Below, piece by piece: positions 8,658 to 26,889 of a DNA stretch of 32,000 nucleotides. The stretch covers positions 2,525 through 34,524 of the forward strand of contig JAWOFX010000148.1 in NCBI GenBank assembly GCA_046497275.1, given 5' to 3'. Position 1 is the stretch's first letter; the number at the start of each line of letters is the position of its first letter. Source of the stretch: Promethearchaeia archaeon. Lineage in GTDB: Archaea > Asgardarchaeota > Lokiarchaeia > Sigyniarchaeales > SOKP01. The notes beneath the pieces are model-generated. The model did not search any database, was not told the origin of the DNA, and saw only the letters and a list, made by a program, of their open reading frames with translations. Made by a program: the position numbers and the translations under genes.

Positions 8658-9509
8658 ATGGTTCAAGTATTTCTCATAAACCCTGACGGAACAACTTCGG
8701 AGGTAAAAACAGAAGGATCTATAAAAGATGTGCTCGAAAATGATCAAGCTTATGTGATCGTATCCGACGATGTGCGAAAAGTGTATTTATGGAAAGGAAT
8801 AAAAAGCAATGTTCGCTCAAAATTTATTGGAGCCAAACGAAGTCAAGAAATTAGAGGACAAGTTGGTATGCATTATAGCGTCGTGCCGTTAGATCAGAAC
8901 GAAGAAGATGAAGATCCTGATTTTCTTGGGTTAATTGGTGGAAGGACAACTAATGGTATTGCAAAAGAGATTTCAGCGGATGATATTGGGGGTGCCTCTA
9001 AAGGAAGCGGAGGACATCCATTACGAGAAAAATCTGAATTTGCTCCTCCCGAACCTGCATCAGATATGAATATTGCGGGAAGTAAAACAAGAAGTAAGCA
9101 AAATAGTGGTCCTCTTTATAAAGGGGAGGAATCTTTAGCTGCTTTTACCACTGATGAGCAAAAAATCAATTTTGAGCAAATTATGCAAAAACTTGAAGAA
9201 ATAAAAATGCCAAATGGCTATGAAAGAGAATTATTAATTATTGGAAATCATGCATATGCTTTGGTAGAGAAAAAACAATCATTTCTAGGAAAAACTACTA
9301 GCGAAAAAATACTTGAAAAAGTTGGAACGATACCAGAAGGAATTTTCTTTGCGGAGAGTTATAGCCCCCGTATATTATCAGAGGGTGGTAATATCGTAGC
9401 AATAGAATTTTTAAAAAAAACAGGAAATACCAAAGCTAAAGTAGAAGAGCAAGATAAAAGAAGTATGTTGAAGAACCAAATTAAATCGCAACTAGAGAAC
9501 AAAAAATAA
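8658..9509 (+). CDS. Gelsolin-domain protein (one gelsolin repeat, linker, C-terminal X domain; 1DGelX-like)
   Basis: N-terminal L.NDQAYVIV....KVYLWKG..S.VRSKFIGA matches a gelsolin/villin repeat. It is followed by a Gly/Ser/acidic linker and a compact alpha/beta domain of about 85 aa. Confidence 0.78.
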   Translation: MVQVFLINPDGTTSEVKTEGSIKDVLENDQAYVIVSDDVRKVYLWKGIKSNVRSKFIGAKRSQEIRGQVGMHYSVVPLDQNEEDEDPDFLGLIGGRTTNGIAKEISADDIGGASKGSGGHPLREKSEFAPPEPASDMNIAGSKTRSKQNSGPLYKGEESLAAFTTDEQKINFEQIMQKLEEIKMPNGYERELLIIGNHAYALVEKKQSFLGKTTSEKILEKVGTIPEGIFFAESYSPRILSEGGNIVAIEFLKKTGNTKAKVEEQDKRSMLKNQIKSQLENKK

Positions 9510-9585
9510 TATATTTTTGAAATTCTTTTTGTCTATCAATTTAAAAATATATGAGTGAAAAAGAAAAAAATACATCTTTTGAAAA

Positions 9586-9978
9586 ATGAGCGATTTAACT
9601 CCTGAGGAAGCAAAGAGTTTGTCAAACTTTTTGGGAAATATTACGGAACATTCAGAACTAGAAGCCTTAGCTTTAATAACTCGTGAAGGTCTTCGATTAG
9701 CTTTTTCTAGCGTACCTGGATATAATGTTGATCCCGATTTATTTTCAAGTCTAAGTGCTGTAGTAGTACAAAGTGGCACTGATGCGATTTCTACATTAGG
9801 TTACCATAATATGCTCGAGGTCATTTTACGTGGAGAGGATGCATTTATCATTCTCTCAGATGCTGGAAGATTCTTTTTAATGGGTGCATGTAGAAAAATT
9901 GAAGACCTCGGAAAAATAGTCTCAATTTTTAGATACTACTCTGGTGAAATCAGAAAACGATATCCACGAAAAGAATAA
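9586..9978 (+). CDS. Roadblock/LC7 domain protein
   Basis: 130 aa with the helix - ALALITREGL - D.DLFSSLSA helix - three strands - LGKI helix pattern. Confidence 0.88.
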   Translation: MSDLTPEEAKSLSNFLGNITEHSELEALALITREGLRLAFSSVPGYNVDPDLFSSLSAVVVQSGTDAISTLGYHNMLEVILRGEDAFIILSDAGRFFLMGACRKIEDLGKIVSIFRYYSGEIRKRYPRKE

Positions 9979-10168
9979 AATTCTCTTTTTTCACACAAAA
10001 TATGAAGTAAATATATTTATATTCGTTTTTGCTATTTTTTTTATAAAGAGTTAAAATTTAACCCAAATTGAATTCTTACATTTAGGTAAATATTATAGAT
10101 TTTAATATTGGGAAAAATAAAATAATTTATTAATCATTTAAAATAAATCATTAAAAAATCTATTAAAG

Positions 10169-12322
10169 ATGTCAAAAGAAATAAAAATTTTCGTGGATCA
10201 AAAACAAGATATTTCCAATACAGTTATAATATCTCCAGAAAATGCAAGAAAATTAGAAGTTTCAAATGGACAAAATGTAGAGGTTTATAATCCAGATAAC
10301 GGACAAACCGTGAATGCAATGGTGCAAGTTTCTGAAAATGTATTAGATTTTGCGGGTAAATTTTCAAAAGATATTTTACAGAATGTTAATTATTCTGGTG
10401 TTGAATTAATTGTGCGTTCCCAAGGTACGGGGACATCTCAACCCGCATCTCAACCAGCTCCAACACAAGCTACAAGTCCTCCACCTCGAGATGCTGGAGG
10501 TACCTTTACACCTCCGCCAAAACTCAAACGCCCAGAAGTCTCACCAAAACCACCTCCTCCTCCCGCACCTCGTCAAACAACTTCAAGTCCTAGTGAAGTT
10601 CCAAAACCTCCTCAATCAGCTCCTACTCCCCCCTCAGATATTCCATCTCAATCCCCACGTCCTCCATCTGTAGTTTCGTACCAACCACCCGGAGGATCCC
10701 GACCTCCTTCTCCTATCTCTTCAGAACAGTCTTTTCCACAGGAATCATCAATGCCACAGCCAGAGCCAGAACCCTTTCCGAATAGAATTGATCCAAATAT
10801 GTTAGCACAACAAAAAAATGGAATTGTCGTTCAACCTGTCGTGTCCGCTAAGATAGAAGGAGGGAGGATTCAATTAAGCTCCAATAATTTACAAAGACTT
10901 GGTCTGGGGCAAGGAATGCTTGTTGCGTGGGAAGATCCTCTTACACGCTCCAATGGTTCAGCTAGAATAGATGTTGCTGCAATAAGTGATGCTCAAATTA
11001 AAATTAGTCAAGACACTAAAGAAGATACAAATATTCAATCAGATCAAATCGTTATATACTCTACAGAACCACCCATCCAAAAAGCTGAAAGCTTGATATT
11101 AGAAGTAGAGTCCCGTGCTGGATTAGAAGGATATGCATTAGTAAGTCCTAGAACTCAACACACTTTATCTCTTCAAAATGATGATGTAATCGCTTTTGAA
11201 GATGATTTAACAGGCGCGATGGGAGCGGGAAAAGTGAGAATCTCTGAGAGAGTCAATGATAATATCATTGTTATTGACAGTGAAATATTAGAAGCATCCG
11301 GAATAGGCAGTTTTGAAGTAACTGTGTCAAAAAATCAAAGACAAATTATTCCTTTACAGAGTGTTTCTTTGGGTATTTCCCCCATCTCAGGGGAAAATAT
11401 GTGGGAAATCGTGAGTACTGCTCGACAAAATATAGGGCAACTTAAGAGTTGGCTTTCTAAATATATAATTTTTAAAGGGATTAAACTTAGATGGAAAGCC
11501 GTTAACATAGCATGTTCCATTCTTAGTTGCGTACCAGATTTAACTGGTGATGTATTAGCTCAAATAACTCCCAATAGCGCATTGACCTTGGCTCCCCAAG
11601 GATTAATACCATTTAATGCAATTCTTATCATCGATATTAGTCGTTCAATGATGGCACGAGATGTCCTTGTGACAAACATAGCCCCAGCTATAGAGGGTAT
11701 CAAAGCTGCGATGGAAAGTAGAGAAATTCAAGAGTTTCTGAAGAAATTTAAAGACGGAGTAAATATCCCACGGCGAATATCTGCTGCATTTGCCGCAGTT
11801 CTATTTTTAAGTGAAAAAGTAGGGAGGGGATTTGGTGAAAAAGTCTCTGTAATTCGATTCGCTGATGAATCTCAAATTCTCCCATTTGGAGGGAGCTTCT
11901 ATATGGATTCTGCCAGTGGTAAGAAAGGTATACTTGAAGATGCCGCTCGTTTGATTGTTGATAGGATTGGAAATGCATATGGTCAAGCCACGAATATGGG
12001 CAGTGCAATGGTCAAAGCAAAAGCGGTCTTGGATGAGTTCAATGAAATGAATCCTAACCAACCGACTATGATAGTATTGCTTACTGATGGCGTACCCACT
12101 GATGGCGACGCTTTCTTTAATACGATACAGCTTTTCGCAGAAAACCCCAACGTAGTGATCTATATAGTTGGTCTTGGAAACCCAGATGATGAATTGATGA
12201 ATAGAGCCGCTCAATTATGCGGTGGAGAGTATTTCAAACCAGATGATGCTGGAGAACTATTAGTTTGGTACTCTAAAAGAGCACGCGACCTCTCTGTAAA
12301 ACTGAAAGCACATAAACACTAA
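10169..12322 (+). CDS. vWA-domain protein with three N-terminal Cdc48-N/double-psi-barrel-like repeats and a proline-rich linker
   Basis: C-terminal vWA with a complete MIDAS (IDISRS at about aa 489-493, TNMG, LLTDG). Three internal repeats of pattern I..S......L.L..G..V...(N/D)P....G.A.V......D..I.I. A Pro/Ser/Gln-rich segment spans about aa 85-205. Confidence 0.82.
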   Translation: MSKEIKIFVDQKQDISNTVIISPENARKLEVSNGQNVEVYNPDNGQTVNAMVQVSENVLDFAGKFSKDILQNVNYSGVELIVRSQGTGTSQPASQPAPTQATSPPPRDAGGTFTPPPKLKRPEVSPKPPPPPAPRQTTSSPSEVPKPPQSAPTPPSDIPSQSPRPPSVVSYQPPGGSRPPSPISSEQSFPQESSMPQPEPEPFPNRIDPNMLAQQKNGIVVQPVVSAKIEGGRIQLSSNNLQRLGLGQGMLVAWEDPLTRSNGSARIDVAAISDAQIKISQDTKEDTNIQSDQIVIYSTEPPIQKAESLILEVESRAGLEGYALVSPRTQHTLSLQNDDVIAFEDDLTGAMGAGKVRISERVNDNIIVIDSEILEASGIGSFEVTVSKNQRQIIPLQSVSLGISPISGENMWEIVSTARQNIGQLKSWLSKYIIFKGIKLRWKAVNIACSILSCVPDLTGDVLAQITPNSALTLAPQGLIPFNAILIIDISRSMMARDVLVTNIAPAIEGIKAAMESREIQEFLKKFKDGVNIPRRISAAFAAVLFLSEKVGRGFGEKVSVIRFADESQILPFGGSFYMDSASGKKGILEDAARLIVDRIGNAYGQATNMGSAMVKAKAVLDEFNEMNPNQPTMIVLLTDGVPTDGDAFFNTIQLFAENPNVVIYIVGLGNPDDELMNRAAQLCGGEYFKPDDAGELLVWYSKRARDLSVKLKAHKH

Positions 12323-12530
12323 AATATTTTTATGTGTAAGGCTAATGTAGTTTTAGGAAAAATATAGGCTTTGATTAAAAGGGAAGGCATATAAAGAATA
12401 GCTCTATTTTTTTCCTTTTTCATATTTTAGTTGTTAGAACCTTAAATTTCTTTAAAAGACATATAGATTTATATTAGTCTTTTTCATTAAATAAAATAAT
12501 AATAATTTAATCCCATTTTTGACCCATAGG

Positions 12531-12932
12531 ATGAAAGAAGTAAAGATAGTTTCGTTAGATGATCGCGGGAGAATAGTGATCCCACAAATTATTCGAGAGA
12601 GTTTAGGTTTAACCACAGACTCTCAAGTTATGATGGTTGCGGACAGTGAGACGAAAGAAATAAAGATTACACCAGTTGGATTAGATGAAGACAGAAAACC
12701 AATAAAATTACGAATTACTATGGAAGATGCTCCTGGAGCTTTAGCCAAGATTGCGATAGCTTTTGGAAAATTAGGAATTTCTTTGATGTATGGTGAATCT
12801 GTTGTTATAGAAAAGGATAAAAAGGCGATCTGGACCGTTATTAGTCCCACACCCAATATACCATTAGAAGAGCTGGAAAAAAAGCTTAAAGTTGAAGGTG
12901 ATGCTCTCAATGTGGAGTTTGTACCTCTTTAG
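12531..12932 (+). CDS. AbrB/MazE/SpoVT-family DNA-binding protein fused to an ACT domain
   Basis: LDDRGRIVIPQ.IRE.LGL followed by MEDAPGALAKIA..FG..GI (ACT). ATG at 12531 is preferred over TTG at 12519. Confidence 0.88.
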   Translation: MKEVKIVSLDDRGRIVIPQIIRESLGLTTDSQVMMVADSETKEIKITPVGLDEDRKPIKLRITMEDAPGALAKIAIAFGKLGISLMYGESVVIEKDKKAIWTVISPTPNIPLEELEKKLKVEGDALNVEFVPL

Positions 12933-13101: not shown

Positions 13102-13719
13102 ATGGCAAAAAAGAAATCTAAGCAAGACAAAGAAGAAGAAACATTAGATAACGCTTTAAAATCAGCAAAAAAAACAGAAAATGATCTCCAGAATTTAATT
13201 GAAGTCCTACAAATGGGGAAAGGATTTTATAAAAAGAAAGAAAAACAACCAGAAGAAGAAGTAGTTGTGATTCAACCACAATTATCTCATGAAAAGAAAG
13301 AAGAAAAAAAGCCATCTTCAGTTAAAGAAGAACCAAGTTTTATTAAGGAAAAAGGAGGTAAAATTAAAGGAGAGGATATTTATTTAAAATTAGGAGAGTT
13401 CTTTGAGAACCTATTTGAGAGTTATAATGAAAGATATAATGAGTGGGAAAATTCCATTTCTGCTTTATTGTCAATTTTACGAAAAATGAGAAAAATAACA
13501 AAGAAAAACACAGAATCATTAACACATGAAATCAATAATGCATATGAAAAGATTTTAAAAAATTTAGACCAATTTAAATTAAAACGAGATGAGATCGAAA
13601 AAATTGCCGAAGTTGATGTCCAAGGGATGTCTCGGGAATTTAAAAAAGTTTTAGGCTTATTAGAACTCCAGATCAAAGAGTATCAATTAAAAAGAATCAC
13701 AGATGAGATGTTTCATTAA
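13102..13719 (+). CDS. Hypothetical protein: charged disordered N-half and coiled-coil/helical C-half
   Basis: 205-aa ORF, K/E-rich; heptad-like pattern from about aa 90 to 205. Confidence 0.78.
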   Translation: MAKKKSKQDKEEETLDNALKSAKKTENDLQNLIEVLQMGKGFYKKKEKQPEEEVVVIQPQLSHEKKEEKKPSSVKEEPSFIKEKGGKIKGEDIYLKLGEFFENLFESYNERYNEWENSISALLSILRKMRKITKKNTESLTHEINNAYEKILKNLDQFKLKRDEIEKIAEVDVQGMSREFKKVLGLLELQIKEYQLKRITDEMFH

Positions 13720-13773
13720 ATTTTTTGATTCAGGTTTAATCCATTAAGAATAATAAAATCGATTTTTATCAAA

Positions 13774-14943
13774 ATGTCGGCTGAAGATACTAGATATTTA
13801 AGACCAATCATAATTGATTTCGGGTCAAGCATGTTTAGACTGGGTTGGGCGGGGGATGATTTTCCAGAAACTCTTAGCCCAAGTATCTATGTTGATATTT
13901 CAGATTATATTTTTAACTCTGATGTTATAAATGGTTTGGAAGAGATATTTATAGGGGAAGGAGATCAAGATTATCTTTTTGGGGGAGAGGCTTTAAAATA
14001 TCAAAATATATTAAAAATTCATGAATTTATAAAAGAAGAAAATTACAACATTTTGGAAAAATATTTTCTATTTCATTATCAGAAATTAAATATTCCTGAA
14101 AAATATCATTTTATGCAACCAGCTATTATTCTCAGCCCTTTTAACATAACGGATATGGTTAAAGCAAAATTACAACATATCTTTTTTGAGAAATTTCAAT
14201 TTCCTTTTTTATTATTTCTTCCCGCTGATAAAGCGATCTTGTCTACCTTAAGGAAATCTGATGGAGTAATCGTGAATATGGGAGAAAATAGTACTTATAT
14301 ATCTTCAATTTATCATGGTTTTACCAATATAATGGCTAGAGATGTTTTTCCAATCGCCGGTGAAGAATTAACAAATTATTTCTTGAACATGATTTTAAAG
14401 GGAAGAGGTTCAAGCAGAAATTTCTATTTAGATTTTTGGCTTGCTAAGGAAATCAAGGAAAAAATGTCTCTATGTGTACAAAATCCAAAAAAAGAAAGAG
14501 AACGTATAAAAGAGGGCTTAACAAAATATGATAGAGTCGTAAAATTGCCAGATAATTCACAATTAAAAATAAATTCTGAACGATTTATGATAGCAGAACC
14601 CCTTTTTGACCCTAAGGTTGTTCATATCGATTATATATCACTTTCAGAAGTTATAGCGAAGATAGTAAAGTTTTGGGATCGGGAAAATTGGGAACATCTG
14701 ATATCTAATATCGTACTTTCTGGAGGGGGTAGTTTGATTCCAGGTTTAAAGGATAGACTGCAATCAGATTTAAAGAATTATTTTTCTGATAAATTGAAAG
14801 ATAAGATAAAGGTATTAGCTCCTTCAGGCAGAGATAATATGAGTTGGATCGGGGCGAGTATCTTATTTGGTCTAGATAAATTAGAGGGATGGATTAGAAA
14901 CCCGAAACTAGAGAAGGAAAAAAGTGAGGAGAGTGAGAATTAG
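13774..14943 (+). CDS. Actin-related protein (divergent Asgard Arp)
   Basis: Actin-fold motifs IIIDFGSSMFRLGWAGDDFP, FGGEA, EKFQFP, IAGEELT, EIKEK, LPD, ERF..AEPLF.P, NIVLSGGGSLIPG...RL and SWIGASIL. Confidence 0.93.
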   Translation: MSAEDTRYLRPIIIDFGSSMFRLGWAGDDFPETLSPSIYVDISDYIFNSDVINGLEEIFIGEGDQDYLFGGEALKYQNILKIHEFIKEENYNILEKYFLFHYQKLNIPEKYHFMQPAIILSPFNITDMVKAKLQHIFFEKFQFPFLLFLPADKAILSTLRKSDGVIVNMGENSTYISSIYHGFTNIMARDVFPIAGEELTNYFLNMILKGRGSSRNFYLDFWLAKEIKEKMSLCVQNPKKERERIKEGLTKYDRVVKLPDNSQLKINSERFMIAEPLFDPKVVHIDYISLSEVIAKIVKFWDRENWEHLISNIVLSGGGSLIPGLKDRLQSDLKNYFSDKLKDKIKVLAPSGRDNMSWIGASILFGLDKLEGWIRNPKLEKEKSEESEN

Positions 14944-14945
14944 AG

Positions 14946-17519
14946 ATGTCTGTCGATGTTGAGAAAAAAAAAAGGTTTTTGAGTGAATTTCAAGACCGTG
15001 TAATCCAAGCACGGAGATTACTTCAATCAGGAAATCATCATTGGGCTTCTAAATTAATCTTAGATTTATATTTTGATATTGAAACGAAAGAATGGCTTAA
15101 TGCTCAAAAAAAGCATCAGCTTATTTTAGTTCTCTCAAATTCCTTTTGGATCTATATTAATTCTCTTAAAAAAAGCAATAAAGAAGATATAGATTTGATA
15201 AGATACATTGATGCTCATAAACGATTTTTTTCATTTCTTACAAAATTAGAAGATTTCCATCTCTTTGAAAAGTTTGCTACAAATTTGATTCATTCTTTCA
15301 TTAAAATGGAAGATCTTTCTATTGAAGGAATAACACAATTCATTAATTCTTTCTCAATAAAAGTGATTGAGGAAAAAGATTATTTAAAATTAATCGAGCT
15401 TCAAATTTTATTAATGTTTTTAAGAAAATCAGTTATCCCTACGGATTATTTTCGAACTGCGATGGAATATCTCGGAAGAATAATCTACAAATTAGAACCA
15501 AGTAAAAGGGCACTCTTTCTCTATATAATTTTGGAAAATGTTAATATAAAGTTCAATTTAATTGAACATTCTGAAGAATTCATTAATATTATGAATAAAA
15601 TCTTAGTAAATCGAATACCTAATTATCTAAGAGAATATTTTAGTAATTTAAGCAGAATTAAAATAAATAAAGGAACTTTTAATTCAATTAAGAATGATCT
15701 TATAGATTTGATTCATTATTTGAATAATATTGGTGAGGCTTCATGGATTATTATTATTATACGGATATTATTTGATAAGGTAAAAAAGTATGAGTCATTG
15801 GGTGACGCAATTACAGTAACACGAGAATTTGTAGAATATTCTATTGATCGAAACAATTTTCAGGTTGCTTTTGAAATTTATAATTTTTTAGAAGATTTAT
15901 TTTTAATGCAATCTGATTTAGGCTATGATAACGTTACTATTGAACTTTGGGCGGAAGCATGCAAACGATTCGTTACTATGAAAGAAAAAAAATATTTATT
16001 ACAATCGATAGAAAAGCTAACTAATCATTTAAGCACTCCTCAAAAACCGCCTCAAATTTTCCATTATTTTTATACTTGCAACTATCTCTGGAAATTTAAA
16101 AGCATGTTTTTTTCATTAGAGAGACGAGATTTTTGGAACATGATCTTCTACCGCGCTTTATATGATCAAGATGATTTGGAACTAGCTAAAAAGATAATCC
16201 CATATTTAGGAAAGCGAATACGACCTCTTTTAGAGAACTTAGAAGAATTACATAAGCAAACTAAGGAATTAAAAAATGAGATCTATTTTTTAGAAGACAA
16301 AAAGGAACATTCTTTTTATCAACAAGAATTTGAGATTAAAAATATCATTATTAGAATAAAATCCTCGGGGGAAATGTCTTATCGAATTCTCTCATTAGCA
16401 AATGAAATAATTGAGGGAAAAATAAAAAATGAATATTGGAACGATTTACACGTTCTTGATATTTACAATGATTTATTTTCAGATAAAAAAGAAAAAGAAT
16501 TTAATTTTAACCTTCAAGAATTCGGTACTATTCTCTTTCTTTTATTACCAAAATTGATTCGAGATTTTTTTACGCAATTTCAAATTAAAAGTTTGGATTA
16601 CATACCTCAAATATACTTTATCCTGAATCATATGTCAATTCCATTTGAATTAATCTATGATAGTAATTTTTTCTTGTTAAAATATTCGAGTGGTTATAAT
16701 ATTGGTGAACCATCAATAGAAGGTTATAAATTTTCTCCAGATAAATATGAATCTTCGATCGAAAATGCTTCTGATGGATCTTATAAAGTGTTAATAATTG
16801 ATTCAATTAATGCGTTAGGACCTAAAATTTGGAATGAAGAAAAAAAATCAAAAGAGATTTTGTTTCCATTTCCATCGGGAGCAAATGAACTTAATTTTAT
16901 AACCCAATTTCTTAATGAGAGAAGTGAGGTTGAAAGTATGGAGATTCTTACTGGTAGAGAAAGTACACGTGAATCTATTCTTAATAAAATCGGTTCTGGT
17001 ACTCATCATTTAATTTATATCGTAGGAAATATTTTCTTTTCTGAATTAAATCCACAAAATTCCTATTTCATTACCAACGATGATAATATTGTTAAATTTA
17101 CAGAGATTTTTGATATGTTAAAGAAAAATAACAGAATTAAACCACTTCTATTTTTTAACACACAACTTTTTGATAATGAAGGGAATCATCTAAAAGAAGA
17201 ATTAACAAGTTTTGGTGAGATTATTTCCCAATTTAGATTTAATGATATAAATGGAATTATGAGTAGAAATTATCCTATTTTTAATGACGAAACAAAACAA
17301 ATAATAACAAATTTTTTCTCCAATTTGTTTGAAAACAAGAGCTTAGGTATATCCCTTTTAGATGCCAGACAAAAAGTCATAGCTGAAAGGACCACGAAAC
17401 TAATCCAAGAGCAAATTTCAAAATTTGATAAAATTGAAAAAGATCAACATATCAATATTGAAAATAGTCAAGCGATTTCTAGTTTTCTACTTTTTGGGGA
17501 GCCTTGGAAGAAATTATAA
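14946..17519 (+). CDS. Alpha-solenoid (TPR-like) protein with a C-terminal CHAT (caspase-fold) domain, predicted inactive
   Basis: About 440 aa of helical repeats. The C-terminal region follows the CHAT pattern: FG..LF.LL, IPFELI, T...I..., YPI.....FF..L....SLG..L..AR, F.LFGEP. The HxxGH motif reads YIVGN and the L(S/N)AC motif reads FFNTQ. Confidence 0.75.
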   Translation: MSVDVEKKKRFLSEFQDRVIQARRLLQSGNHHWASKLILDLYFDIETKEWLNAQKKHQLILVLSNSFWIYINSLKKSNKEDIDLIRYIDAHKRFFSFLTKLEDFHLFEKFATNLIHSFIKMEDLSIEGITQFINSFSIKVIEEKDYLKLIELQILLMFLRKSVIPTDYFRTAMEYLGRIIYKLEPSKRALFLYIILENVNIKFNLIEHSEEFINIMNKILVNRIPNYLREYFSNLSRIKINKGTFNSIKNDLIDLIHYLNNIGEASWIIIIIRILFDKVKKYESLGDAITVTREFVEYSIDRNNFQVAFEIYNFLEDLFLMQSDLGYDNVTIELWAEACKRFVTMKEKKYLLQSIEKLTNHLSTPQKPPQIFHYFYTCNYLWKFKSMFFSLERRDFWNMIFYRALYDQDDLELAKKIIPYLGKRIRPLLENLEELHKQTKELKNEIYFLEDKKEHSFYQQEFEIKNIIIRIKSSGEMSYRILSLANEIIEGKIKNEYWNDLHVLDIYNDLFSDKKEKEFNFNLQEFGTILFLLLPKLIRDFFTQFQIKSLDYIPQIYFILNHMSIPFELIYDSNFFLLKYSSGYNIGEPSIEGYKFSPDKYESSIENASDGSYKVLIIDSINALGPKIWNEEKKSKEILFPFPSGANELNFITQFLNERSEVESMEILTGRESTRESILNKIGSGTHHLIYIVGNIFFSELNPQNSYFITNDDNIVKFTEIFDMLKKNNRIKPLLFFNTQLFDNEGNHLKEELTSFGEIISQFRFNDINGIMSRNYPIFNDETKQIITNFFSNLFENKSLGISLLDARQKVIAERTTKLIQEQISKFDKIEKDQHINIENSQAISSFLLFGEPWKKL

Positions 17520-17611
17520 GAAATATGAAATATTAAATAGAAATATAATTACTAAATTTATATCTAAAGTATTAATAGAATTCATATATAATACATTAAA
17601 AGTGGTTTAAA

Positions 17612-18148
17612 TTGTCAGATGATAGGTTAATAGAATTAAGAGTAGAAAATCGAAGATTAAAACAAGAAGTTGAAAATTTGGAAAACAAGATATTAACTTT
17701 AGTTGGTAATGTCGAAATAGGGATTTCAGGTGGTCCAAACAATAATAATTTGATTAATGATGAAATTATCAATCTAATAGGGTCCACAAATCATCAACTT
17801 AATATTTTGTCACCAAAAATCGATAGATTTTATACTAATGAACTTATGAATCTTGCAAACAAAGGTCTTGAAATTAGAGTGGTAACGCTTGAAAGAAGTA
17901 ATATACCTAGTGAATTTTTAGAATATTATGATGAGTTAAAAAATGAGCGGAACATTAAAGTTATTAACAACCCTAATGTCGCTAGTCTATTACTATTTAA
18001 TGAAAAGGAAGCTATCTTTACACAGGGTTCATTAGATAAAAAAGAGTTACAGGAGTCAATGTTAATTGAAACCAAAGTTAAATCCATGACCACTTTGGAA
18101 ACAATTAGAGAATATTATAATTTATTTCTTCCGTCTTTTATGAGATAA
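17612..18148 (+). CDS. Leucine-zipper plus PLD/TrmB-C-like fold protein, HKD motif degenerate
   Basis: N-terminal zipper LRVENRRLKQEVENLENKI, then I.NLI....LNILSP.I, L..L..KGL.IRVVT, and VASLLLFNEKEAIFTQGSL in place of HxKxxxxDxxxxxxGSxN. TTG start. Confidence 0.72.
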   Translation: MSDDRLIELRVENRRLKQEVENLENKILTLVGNVEIGISGGPNNNNLINDEIINLIGSTNHQLNILSPKIDRFYTNELMNLANKGLEIRVVTLERSNIPSEFLEYYDELKNERNIKVINNPNVASLLLFNEKEAIFTQGSLDKKELQESMLIETKVKSMTTLETIREYYNLFLPSFMR

Positions 18149-18288: not shown

Positions 18289-20499
18289 ATGTCTGAGAAG
18301 AAAGTAATCACCGCAAATAGCATAGTGGAATTATTTGGAAAAGGAACCAAGCTTTATGTAAAAATCTCAGAAAATATTCATAATCAAATAGAAAATAATA
18401 AAAAATTATTTCATAAGAAACTTGGAATCTGGAAAAAAATATTTCACCCAATTTATGAAACAAAATCTGATAAAGAGTTATTTTTAGACCATTTAATTTA
18501 CTCAAACATATTATATGTGATTCTTCTCATTAGAATATCGAAAAAAAATCATATTCAATTTAAAAAAATCTATAATCAATATAAAACAAAAGATTTTGAG
18601 ATAATATCTGATCAAATAATAGATTTATTCAAATGGATAAAAATTCAAGAGAATATTTTTAAAGAAATATATGATATAATTGTTGATACTCATTTAGGGT
18701 CGGAAGATTTGTTTCACTCACTTTATCAACAGATTTTTCAATCTTCTATCAGGCATCTCGCTGGTGAGTTTTACACTCCTTCAAAATTAGTTGAAAAAAT
18801 GGTGAGCGATACCTATAAATTTGGGAAAAAAGTGTTAGATCCATCGTGTGGTTCAGGTAATTTTCTTATGGAGATTATTTCAAGAATAATCAAATCAGAG
18901 AAACCAATTAATTCTAAATATGAAGCACTAAACAATCTTTTTGGGTTCGACATTAATCCATTAGCAATTTACACATTAAAGATAAATGTAATTTTGATTC
19001 TTCATGAAAATTTCTCGGACATTAATCTTAATAAATTTGATTTGAATTTTTATGTGCTTGATTCTCTCTTCCCAGAAAATTCTCGAAAAGATCCTAATCT
19101 CAGATTAAAAAATATTTACAATTCATTTGATTTAATTATCGGAAACCCTCCTTGGTTAACATATAAGGATATCTATGATAAAGCATATCAGAAGAATATA
19201 AGAAAATTGGCCGATACTCTTAATATTAAACCCAAAAGTCAATATATTACCCATATTGAATTAGCCACAATTTTTTTTTATGCTATTCCAAAAAAATTTT
19301 CAAAAATTAATGGCATTATCTTTTTTGTGATCACTAAAAGTGTTATAAATGGAGATCATTGCAGGAAGTTCAGATCATTTAAATTTTTCAATAATCTTGA
19401 AATATGGGATTTTCCCGATGATTATAACTTCAATGTGAATCATGTTTGCATAAAAGCTAAATATATAGGAGAGAAAAAGGAACCTATTCAAGAAAAATAT
19501 CCGATTTTAACCAAAATTTTTGATGCTGCATTAAATCTTAAGGAAGAGTTGCTATATTCATCCCTAAAATTAGAAGAAGATGGTGCATTACTACTATTAC
19601 CTCAAAAAGATTTAGATCATTTATCAAATTTTAAATATAGTAGATATAAAGATAAATTTTATCAAGGTGCGACACTGGTTCCTAGACCATTAATATTTTT
19701 CCAAGTCACTGAAAAAAAAGATAATATTCTTATCATTTCTTCGAGTAAAGATATTCTTTCACGGTCAAAAAATAAGTGGAGATTTGAATTTAAAAATAAG
19801 AAAATTGAAGAAAATTTTAGATATAAAACATTTCTTAACAAAGATCTAGTACCTTTTTTCTTGAAAAGAGAGCGAGATGTATTTCTACCCATTGATCTAA
19901 CTGATTTTGATTTTAAAATTAATTATTTACAAAAATTTCCACAAGCTTTCACATTTTATAAGGAAATGAATGAGATTTATAAATCTCGCAAAAAAGCCAC
20001 AAGTGATATAAACACTTTATTTTCTAATTTGAATTATTGGAATAAATTAACCAAGCAAAAAAAAACAGAGCCATATCTGGTAATATATAATGCCAGTGGC
20101 TCCTATTTGAAATCAGCTGTGATCGAGCAATTTGAAAAAAAAATTATTGTTGGTTCTGAAAATTATTATTATGCCACTGACCAAAAAAATGAAGCTTATT
20201 ATCTTACCGCTATTTTAAACAGTCCTATCTTAACTAAGTATATCAAAATGATTAAGAGCTCACGGCATATTCATAAACGCCCATTCTCTTTTCCAATTCC
20301 AATTTATGATAATAAAAATGAATCGCATTATAAGCTTGCTCATAAAGGAAAAAAATATACTTCTTATGCCCACGATATTGTCTATAATAATCCAAAAATT
20401 ACTCCGCGAAAAATAAGAATGATTTTAAATCAGAATTTAAAAAAATTAGATCCTATAGCCAGAAATGTGCTTTTTAATCAGAAAATTCATAAAGAATAA
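18289..20499 (+). CDS. N6-adenine DNA methyltransferase with fused specificity region (Eco57I/Type IIG-like)
   Basis: Motif X GEFYTP, motif I LDPSCGSGNF, GFDINP, motif IV IIGNPPW; C-terminal TRD-like YYL.AILNS. Confidence 0.88.
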   Translation: MSEKKVITANSIVELFGKGTKLYVKISENIHNQIENNKKLFHKKLGIWKKIFHPIYETKSDKELFLDHLIYSNILYVILLIRISKKNHIQFKKIYNQYKTKDFEIISDQIIDLFKWIKIQENIFKEIYDIIVDTHLGSEDLFHSLYQQIFQSSIRHLAGEFYTPSKLVEKMVSDTYKFGKKVLDPSCGSGNFLMEIISRIIKSEKPINSKYEALNNLFGFDINPLAIYTLKINVILILHENFSDINLNKFDLNFYVLDSLFPENSRKDPNLRLKNIYNSFDLIIGNPPWLTYKDIYDKAYQKNIRKLADTLNIKPKSQYITHIELATIFFYAIPKKFSKINGIIFFVITKSVINGDHCRKFRSFKFFNNLEIWDFPDDYNFNVNHVCIKAKYIGEKKEPIQEKYPILTKIFDAALNLKEELLYSSLKLEEDGALLLLPQKDLDHLSNFKYSRYKDKFYQGATLVPRPLIFFQVTEKKDNILIISSSKDILSRSKNKWRFEFKNKKIEENFRYKTFLNKDLVPFFLKRERDVFLPIDLTDFDFKINYLQKFPQAFTFYKEMNEIYKSRKKATSDINTLFSNLNYWNKLTKQKKTEPYLVIYNASGSYLKSAVIEQFEKKIIVGSENYYYATDQKNEAYYLTAILNSPILTKYIKMIKSSRHIHKRPFSFPIPIYDNKNESHYKLAHKGKKYTSYAHDIVYNNPKITPRKIRMILNQNLKKLDPIARNVLFNQKIHKE

Positions 20500-26274: not shown

Positions 26275-26889
26275 ATTCCTTCACGTCGTGGTGATGGCAC
26301 TCTGGTCTTCAAAGTATGCTTTTACGGACCATCCTTAGGAGGGAAGACCACTGCATTGGACTGGGTCTATCGGAAGGAGGGACTCGCTTCAGGAGATATG
26401 CAGCAAATTCAGGATCCTACTGGCCGAACACTTTTTTTTGATAGAGTTGTTGCTAAAGTATCAAATGTAGTTTTTCAAGTATATACTGTTGCGGGTCAGC
26501 GAAGACATAAATTTCAGAGACAAACTGTATTAAAAGGAACAGATTCAATTATTTTTGTCTGGGACAGCTTAATTGATCAATGGGAAGAAAATATATGGTC
26601 CCTTAAAGAATTATTAAAATTTTACGGTAATAAATTACTTCCAAAAGGACCTGGAGAGCCTCCAGAAGTACCGATGGTTGTTTTGGCAAACAAGAGAGAT
26701 TTAGAGGATATTGTGGATGTATCTAAAGTTCGACAAGTATTAGATACAGCTAAGCTAGGTGAAACATTGATTTATGAGACTATTGCGATAACTGGAGTAA
26801 ATGTAAAGCGAGGTTTCGTGTATGCTGCAAGACAAGCAGTTTTAAACCATTATAAGAAATTATCCGGTCAAACGATGGAAAAGACATAA
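26275..26889 (+). CDS. MglA-like small GTPase (Arf/MglA group); probable non-AUG (ATT) start
   Basis: The frame of the track ORF (26356) extends upstream through the P-loop GPSLGGKTT to ATT at 26275, directly after an in-frame TAG. Also RTLFFD, TVAGQ (G3), NKRD (G4) and TIA (G5). SD-like GAGGTGGTGA at 26261-26270. Confidence 0.9.
   Translation: MPSRRGDGTLVFKVCFYGPSLGGKTTALDWVYRKEGLASGDMQQIQDPTGRTLFFDRVVAKVSNVVFQVYTVAGQRRHKFQRQTVLKGTDSIIFVWDSLIDQWEENIWSLKELLKFYGNKLLPKGPGEPPEVPMVVLANKRDLEDIVDVSKVRQVLDTAKLGETLIYETIAITGVNVKRGFVYAARQAVLNHYKKLSGQTMEKT

Follow-up and report, generated by a model that had tools for sequence, protein, structure and literature searches.

A module of four genes, here called A, B, C and D, is found on the + strand of a 32,000-nucleotide stretch of a lokiarchaeial genome (Promethearchaeia archaeon, assembly GCA_046497275.1, contig JAWOFX010000148.1; the whole stretch is hereafter referred to as the window). 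It combines a divergent actin-related protein (Arp) with a caspase-like protein and a phospholipase D (PLD) fold that have both lost their catalytic residues, and with a helical protein belonging to an orphan family. The order of the four genes is conserved across three families of one order, within which B and C go together and A and D form a second, persistent pair. The reading preferred here, to which about an even chance is given, is that the four genes form one operon-like module and that their products are non-catalytic binding proteins, most likely assembling together. The source genome is 3.85-Mb in size and 98.9% complete, and the window corresponds to positions 2525-34524 of its contig. 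The four open reading frames (ORFs) span 13102-18148 with intergenic distances of 54, 2 and 92 nt, which matches exactly the four co-oriented genes and the gaps described in a first-pass annotation made from the letters of the window. The genes and their domains, with one associated gene upstream, are as follows.

13102..13719, + strand: gene A (205 aa); basic N-terminal tip, low-complexity linker and helical C-terminal domain.
13774..14943, + strand: gene B (389 aa); divergent actin-related protein.
14946..16325, + strand: gene C (857 aa; ORF 14946-17519), residues 1-460; TPR-like alpha-solenoid of about 22 helices (AlphaFold2, Foldseek).
16335..17519, + strand: gene C, residues 464-857; CHAT caspase-like alpha/beta domain without catalytic dyad (Pfam, AlphaFold2, Foldseek).
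17612..17710, + strand: gene D (178 aa, TTG start; ORF 17612-18148), residues 1-33; leucine zipper (alignment, AlphaFold2 helix).
17711..18148, + strand: gene D, residues 34-178; PLD fold without HKD motif (AlphaFold2, Foldseek).
12519..12932, + strand: AbrB-ACT gene (associated, outside the core); AbrB/MazE-type DNA-binding domain and ACT domain, 169 nt upstream of A.

Three enzyme folds without their catalytic residues

Gene B belongs to the actin family (Pfam Actin, PF00022, 1.4e-48, 166 bits against a cut-off of 27, residues 10-370), and actins of the PDB match it at 1e-35 when the single sequence is used and at 2e-59 with the profile of its orthologues. It is the most divergent among the five intact actin-family genes of the source genome. 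When aligned with yeast actin and with the Lokiactins of the same genome, its phosphate-2 loop reads NMGENSTY, compared with DSGDGVTH in actin. In actin numbering, this corresponds to the substitutions D154N, D157E, G158N and H161Y, and the position of Q137 is occupied by P or K. Among the residues that position and activate the attacking water (Q137, D154 and H161), none is conserved across 17 orthologues of B. In the same orthologues, D11, G13, G156 and G302 of the nucleotide-binding loops (phosphate-1, phosphate-2 and adenosine) are kept; in B's own numbering, D15 is nearly invariant, and G17, G170 and G317 are invariant. From this pattern of residues, B probably still binds nucleotide but hydrolyses it poorly.

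The protein encoded by gene C is predicted with good confidence (AlphaFold2 model mc5fa1f2573ac; predicted local distance difference test, pLDDT, 84.4; predicted template modelling score, pTM, 0.74) as a series of helices from residue 5 to 459, followed by a small beta element and then by an alpha/beta domain at residues 555-850. The Pfam match to CHAT (PF12770) is marginal (1.8e-5, 24.8 bits against a cut-off of 24, residues 564-724), and the layout is better seen in structural comparisons. Foldseek matches in the PDB include the TPR-CHAT protein Csx29 (1.5e-10) and separase (1e-7 to 1e-5), as well as DdvA, SAVED-CHAT, gingipain and caspases including CED-3 and MALT1. Among Swiss-Prot models, TTC28 (2.5e-10), gasdermin-associated CHAT proteases and separins are matched. 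For the solenoid itself (residues 1-460), the matches are TPR proteins and the TPR regions of Csx29, TTC28 and separase. In a catalytically competent domain of this kind, the core strands are expected to end in His-Gly and in Cys; in C, their ends are G694-N695 and T738-Q739. Cys is missing altogether from residues 464-857, and no column of invariant His or Cys is present among 18 orthologues of C. The position of the nucleophile varies between Q, K, H, R and V in these orthologues, and N695, which adjoins the position of the lost His, is nearly invariant. An identity of C as a separase was considered and rejected because the dyad is absent and the separase E-values are weaker than that of Csx29. 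As the likeness to separase does not exceed the likeness to bacterial CHAT proteins, no specific separase ancestry is indicated.

Gene D is predicted to encode a helix at residues 3-33 followed by a PLD fold (AlphaFold2, pLDDT 86.8). The closest Foldseek match is NucT (3e-9, TM-score 0.64-0.74), which is also found, at 0.0024, with the profile of the D orthologues; other structural matches are Nuc, Zucchini, PLD3/4, TrmBL2 (9e-8) and the DUF1669 domain of FAM83 (3e-7). The HxK(x)4D motif is absent from D, its position being occupied by VASLLLFN in the window protein and by VKYLLVFN in the consensus. The only His of the protein, H61, is not conserved. Other parts of D are strongly constrained: the N-terminal helix is a leucine zipper in which L9, L16, L23 and L30 occupy heptad d positions and the invariant N13 an a position, further positions are invariant (R95, Y106 and P121) or nearly so (N120 and N122), a polar cluster is conserved, and the C-terminal end, LPSFMR, is invariant. 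Homologues of D fall into 63 clusters, all annotated as 'hypothetical' and all from Loki/Promethearchaeota. More generally, public records label C and D as 'hypothetical' or 'CHAT domain-containing'. The first-pass annotation had reported an altered phosphate-2 loop in the Arp, a CHAT domain without its His/Cys dyad and a PLD fold without HKD, and each of these three descriptions is upheld by the residues and orthologue alignments given above.

Gene A encodes a protein with a basic tip (MAKKKSK) and a variable low-complexity linker, which is Pro-rich in family f3 (alignment of 18 orthologues). Its C-terminal domain, of about 115 aa (residues about 90-205), is helical and conserved. The label 'coiled-coil' given to A in the first-pass annotation is thereby upheld as far as the helical character goes. 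Eight residues are invariant in the 18 orthologues: F100, Y112, W115, N136, F158, K161, Q190 and E193. No Pfam family is matched by the A family at threshold, and its one match in the Atlas is a single Promethearchaeota orphan cluster; for the helical domain taken separately, Pfam and Atlas matches are only sub-threshold or at chance level. No membrane segment is predicted in A, B, C or D, and all four proteins are predicted to be soluble.

Some observations were also made on other actin-family genes and on one orthologue of B. In a 511-aa actin-family paralogue of the source genome (C169:9081-10613), four CxxC pairs (CPKCG, CPICG, CPKCG and CPYCG) occur in an inserted stretch of about 130 aa and look like two zinc ribbons within the actin fold. 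Another actin-family gene of this genome (C66:10869-11683) gives a three-piece match with an in-frame TAG, and is either a broken copy or the result of a sequencing error. In genome G016, described below, the module Arp (L038:8700-9839, - strand) has no ATG, GTG or TTG upstream of the phosphate-1 loop. Its first ATG would give a protein of 307 aa without this loop, and the open frame extends upstream to '...GIHITDVKFDILVELGSFETK', which suggests that this species either uses an unusual start codon or has an Arp shortened at its N-terminus.

Conservation across one order

The distribution of the module was surveyed in 400 genomes of the phylum, in which three families (f1, f2 and f3) belong to one order. 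Full-length C is found in 118 of the 134 genomes of f1, in the single genome of f2 and in half of those of f3 (7/14). Outside the order, no full-length C was found among the 400 genomes of the phylum, where matches are at the level of the CHAT domain only. D is found, in single copy, in 125 of the 154 genomes of the order. C and A are likewise single-copy, A also in the source genome. Wherever a sampled locus holds full-length C, the order A-B-C-D and the strand are constant, in at least 35 genomes from three families (loci L001-L039 and L046-L049, with L040 left out). This arrangement persists down to identities of 23-27% for C and 28-33% for B, at which none of the flanking genes of the window is retained. 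The first-pass annotation had named a neighbourhood not conserved in other Lokiarchaeia as a refuting outcome; the survey instead found the four genes kept together and their flanks changing. The median intergenic gaps are 65 nt for A-B, 18 nt for B-C and 80 nt for C-D, and there is a 4-nt overlap between B and C in three lineages. The module is vertically inherited within one order.

The module is also carried, at about 4.583-4.588 Mb, by a single-contig genome of 6,035,313 bp (G016), a putative genome of Ca. Lokiarchaeum ossiferum. In this organism, transcripts of all four actin homologues have been detected by reverse-transcription quantitative PCR (PMC9834061). A promoter and terminator scan of the window gave 39 promoter-like sites, compared with 38 expected, for a bacterial consensus applied to an AT-rich archaeon. 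CHAT-level matches of about 552 aa in sister orders (f5 and f6) were considered as possible members of the module and rejected, as no homologue of A, B or D lies within about 6 kb of them; the module therefore does not extend to those orders.

An A/D core and a B/C pair

In genera g18 and g15, A is followed directly by D, and neither C nor the module Arp is present anywhere in the genome. The best matches to the module Arp in these genomes are at a generic level of 27-28% only, and the sample of g18 includes a closed genome of 4.36 Mb. The genes beyond A-D are unrelated, with Hef and a PHP protein in g18 and the AbrB-ACT gene in g15. A maximum-likelihood tree of D places g18 as the sister of two ABCD genera, g19 and g20 (support 94/92). 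As g18 is nested among ABCD lineages, B and C have been lost jointly there, so that at least one of the two A-D-only genera reflects a joint loss, g15 having no resolved place in this tree.

A different arrangement is seen in g17, where the gene order is B'-C'-A'. The Arp' precedes the N-terminus of C' across a contig break, a homologue of A comes after C', and D lies on a separate contig. This rearrangement indicates that A stays with B and C. An ORF of 155 aa upstream of the lone D in genome G012 was examined as a candidate A and proved not to be an A homologue.

Altogether, the A-D-only genera imply that the unit consists of an A/D core and a B/C pair. The first-pass annotation had proposed that the operon encodes a non-catalytic scaffold containing the Arp. 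The conserved gene order and the three dead enzymes speak for such a scaffold operon, but the Arp is not the obligatory centre of the module, two genera having kept A and D without the Arp and the CHAT protein.

Neighbouring genes

The chromosome around the module is of a housekeeping kind, with genes for gyrase A/B, aldehyde ferredoxin oxidoreductase (AOR), Fe-ADH, M29 peptidase and NAD(P)HX repair. The AbrB-ACT gene (Pfam ACT 4.6e-6, MazE_antitoxin 1.5e-4) lies directly upstream of A in f1, in f2 and in genus g15 of f3, and is not found at this place in g16, g18, g19 or g20. Its product is a possible ligand-responsive regulator of the module.

Downstream of D, at a distance of 140 nt, the window encodes a 736-aa N6-adenine DNA methyltransferase of the type IIG/MmeI kind (18289-20499, + strand; PADLOC REase_MTase_IIG, 2e-38). 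It keeps this position, at 44-63% identity, in most sampled genera of f1, and is absent from it in f2 and f3. Such positional stability is unusual for a restriction-modification gene. In f3, the gene directly downstream of D in seven of eight loci (L041:6047-7261, - strand; L035-L039; L044), A-D-only loci included, encodes an orphan of about 380-413 aa, in which roughly ten segments are hydrophobic. It matches no Pfam family and has no homologue in the genome of the window, and it may connect the module to the membrane in that family.

Upstream of the module (8658-12322, + strand), genes for a 283-aa protein with a faint gelsolin-repeat match (E 0.16), a Roadblock/LC7 protein and a 717-aa vWA protein keep their place beside the module within f1 only. 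At least four paralogues of the 283-aa protein are encoded in the source genome. This protein was considered as a linked partner and set aside, because the copy beside D in g15 (L042:5479-6429) is orthologous to another of these paralogues (on contig C118), so that the link is weak. Finally, a small GTPase of the Arf/Ras type (26356-26889, + strand; Pfam Arf 6.9e-9) is encoded about 8 kb downstream and is another eukaryote-signature gene.

A proposed assembly and its alternatives

What we infer for the physical contacts, for a link to Lokiactin and for the cellular role of the module is as follows. B and C would be a pair that is made together, as it is lost together. D would dimerise through its leucine zipper, holding two pseudo-PLD domains, and would form with A a persistent adaptor core. 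C could hold the Arp, either on its solenoid or in the groove that formerly took substrate. The A/D adaptor would then place the B/C pair in the cell, for example by means of the polybasic tip of A on a membrane or on nucleic acid, and the nucleotide state of the Arp, or its actin-like surfaces, might link the assembly to the Lokiactin cytoskeleton.

Several points weigh against this assembly or qualify it. The stoichiometric complex and co-transcription are putative, the complex being suggested by gene order, and no feature that ties the module specifically to Lokiactin was found. The model of A is helical, but its fold is of low confidence when predicted alone. In a complex prediction of the Arp, D and full-length A with alignment inputs, in which A was scored, the score was 0.00, the fold of A itself being uncertain, which speaks neither for nor against binding. 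Some high-quality f1 genomes are without detectable C or D, so that the module is either not essential everywhere or was missed at assembly gaps. Moreover, two genera have kept A and D although B and C are absent, which means that at least part of the function of the module is independent of the Arp. The LPSFMR tail of D is also kept in these A-D-only genera, which excludes it as a motif serving only the Arp or the CHAT domain. For the same reason, the idea that the ...FMR end does no more than mimic a product within the groove of the dead CHAT domain was rejected, the tail being conserved in genera without C.

Some of these observations would also be expected if the four genes formed a co-regulated pathway without a stable complex, an explanation that is doubtful but is the strongest of the alternatives. 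In such a pathway, C and D would be sensors or adaptors whose former active sites take up a peptide or a small phosphorylated ligand, the Arp would be a nucleotide switch and the AbrB-ACT protein would be the regulator. The positions that D keeps despite the loss of HKD, with R95, Y106 and P121 invariant and N120 and N122 nearly so, are consistent with this view, as are the nearest non-catalytic folds of D, namely the pseudo-PLD of TrmB-type regulators and FAM83. The AbrB-ACT gene upstream of the module in three lineages, and the function of A and D without B and C in two genera, point in the same direction. However, the translational coupling of B and C (a gap of 2 nt, overlaps of 4 nt) and their joint loss are the usual mark of fixed-ratio subunits, and TPR solenoids and zippers are typical assembly elements, all of which favors the assembly over a pathway of separate proteins.

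A more specific possibility is that the module is an Arp machine which Lokiarchaeia-type Asgard archaea evolved separately from Arp2/3, dynactin and the chromatin remodellers, and in which a hydrolysis-dead Arp would sit on a separase/Csx29-like pseudo-protease, be positioned by A and D, and nucleate, cap or anchor Lokiactin, for example at the membrane of protrusions. This is considered unlikely.

A degenerate or unconventional defence or conflict system, Craspase-like or restriction-like and composed of a TPR-CHAT protease, a PLD nuclease and the adjoining DNA methyltransferase, could be suspected from the nearest solved structures of C, which are Csx29 of type III-E CRISPR, SAVED-CHAT and gasdermin-activating CHAT proteases, from the resemblance of D to the nucleases NucT and Nuc, and from the match of the gene downstream of D to type IIG enzyme models. 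However, A, B, C and D match no PADLOC-DB 2.0 family at E <= 0.01, only the methyltransferase neighbour doing so, and this neighbour adjoins the module in f1 only, which makes a defence function very improbable. Moreover, the protease dyad and HKD are absent from every orthologue, and the module is single-copy, vertical and fixed across the order in a housekeeping region, unlike patchy mobile islands. Least probable of all is that C or D is still enzymatic through non-canonical catalytic residues, with the Arp as regulator or substrate: the nearly invariant N695 beside the lost His and the conserved polar cluster of D speak for it, but the CHAT domain of the window protein is free of Cys, the single His of D is not conserved, and the variation at the 'nucleophile' position of C makes residual catalysis unlikely.

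Relation to known systems

The system nearest in kind is the arcade cluster of crenarchaea, made up of crenactin and arcadins 1-4 (Izore et al. 2016, PMC5173319, citing Ettema et al. 2011). As in the module, an archaeal actin homologue is clustered there with small lineage-specific accessory proteins (PMC5173319). In arcadin-2, a non-conserved linker joins the core to a short conserved element at the C-terminus, which docks on a hydrophobic groove of crenactin, and this binding has been proven (PMC5173319). A shares with arcadin-2 the layout of a linker and a conserved C-terminus, and D has an invariant tail, the likeness considered here being one of layout. Unlike in the arcade cluster, the actin member of the module is a catalytically degenerate Arp and not a filament-forming actin, and its candidate partners are a TPR-pseudoCHAT protein and a pseudo-PLD protein.

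The known TPR-CHAT proteins, namely Csx29 of Craspase, TTC28 and separase, have the same layout of helical repeats and caspase-like domain as C. In contrast with these proteins, C lacks the His/Cys dyad, without which it cannot work as TPR-CHAT proteases do, and its context is not one of CRISPR, cohesin or securin. For D, the closest parallels are the effector domain of TrmBL2/TrmB and the DUF1669 domain of FAM83, in which a long helix and a PLD fold without HKD serve dimerisation or scaffolding. D differs from TrmB in having no winged-helix DNA-binding domain and from FAM83 in having no known kinase partner, and it has its own zipper and an invariant LPSFMR end.

In eukaryotes, actin-fold proteins with weak or no ATPase activity are structural subunits of complexes such as Arp2/3, dynactin and INO80/SWR1. 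The analogy that the first-pass annotation had drawn with these complexes holds for this shared principle, but it does not extend to descent or to partners. B shows no special kinship to any eukaryotic Arp class, no phylogeny with eukaryotic Arps having been made: its orthologue profile ranks actins first in the PDB, and its best matches are actins rather than Arp1, Arp2 or another class of Arp. Moreover, A, C and D have no Pfam match at E <= 1 to the ARPC1-5, dynactin p62/p25/p27 or HSA families. The module is thus at most a functional analogue of the eukaryotic complexes. In a full-text search, outside of which most subscription journals lie, no paper was found that connects a CHAT domain protein with any actin relative of Asgard archaea.

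Significance

Asgard genomes encode several actin-related proteins besides Lokiactin, and the partners and functions of these proteins are not established. For one archaeal Arp, the module offers three specific and conserved candidate partners, within the limits that it belongs to one order only and that these partners are unrelated to the subunits of eukaryotic Arp complexes. Three enzyme folds, those of an actin ATPase, a caspase-like protease and a PLD enzyme, have been turned non-catalytic within one operon-like unit, and the lineages that naturally have only A and D provide comparison strains. As the putative Ca. Lokiarchaeum ossiferum genome carries the module, partners of an archaeal Arp would be directly testable in a cultivated organism.

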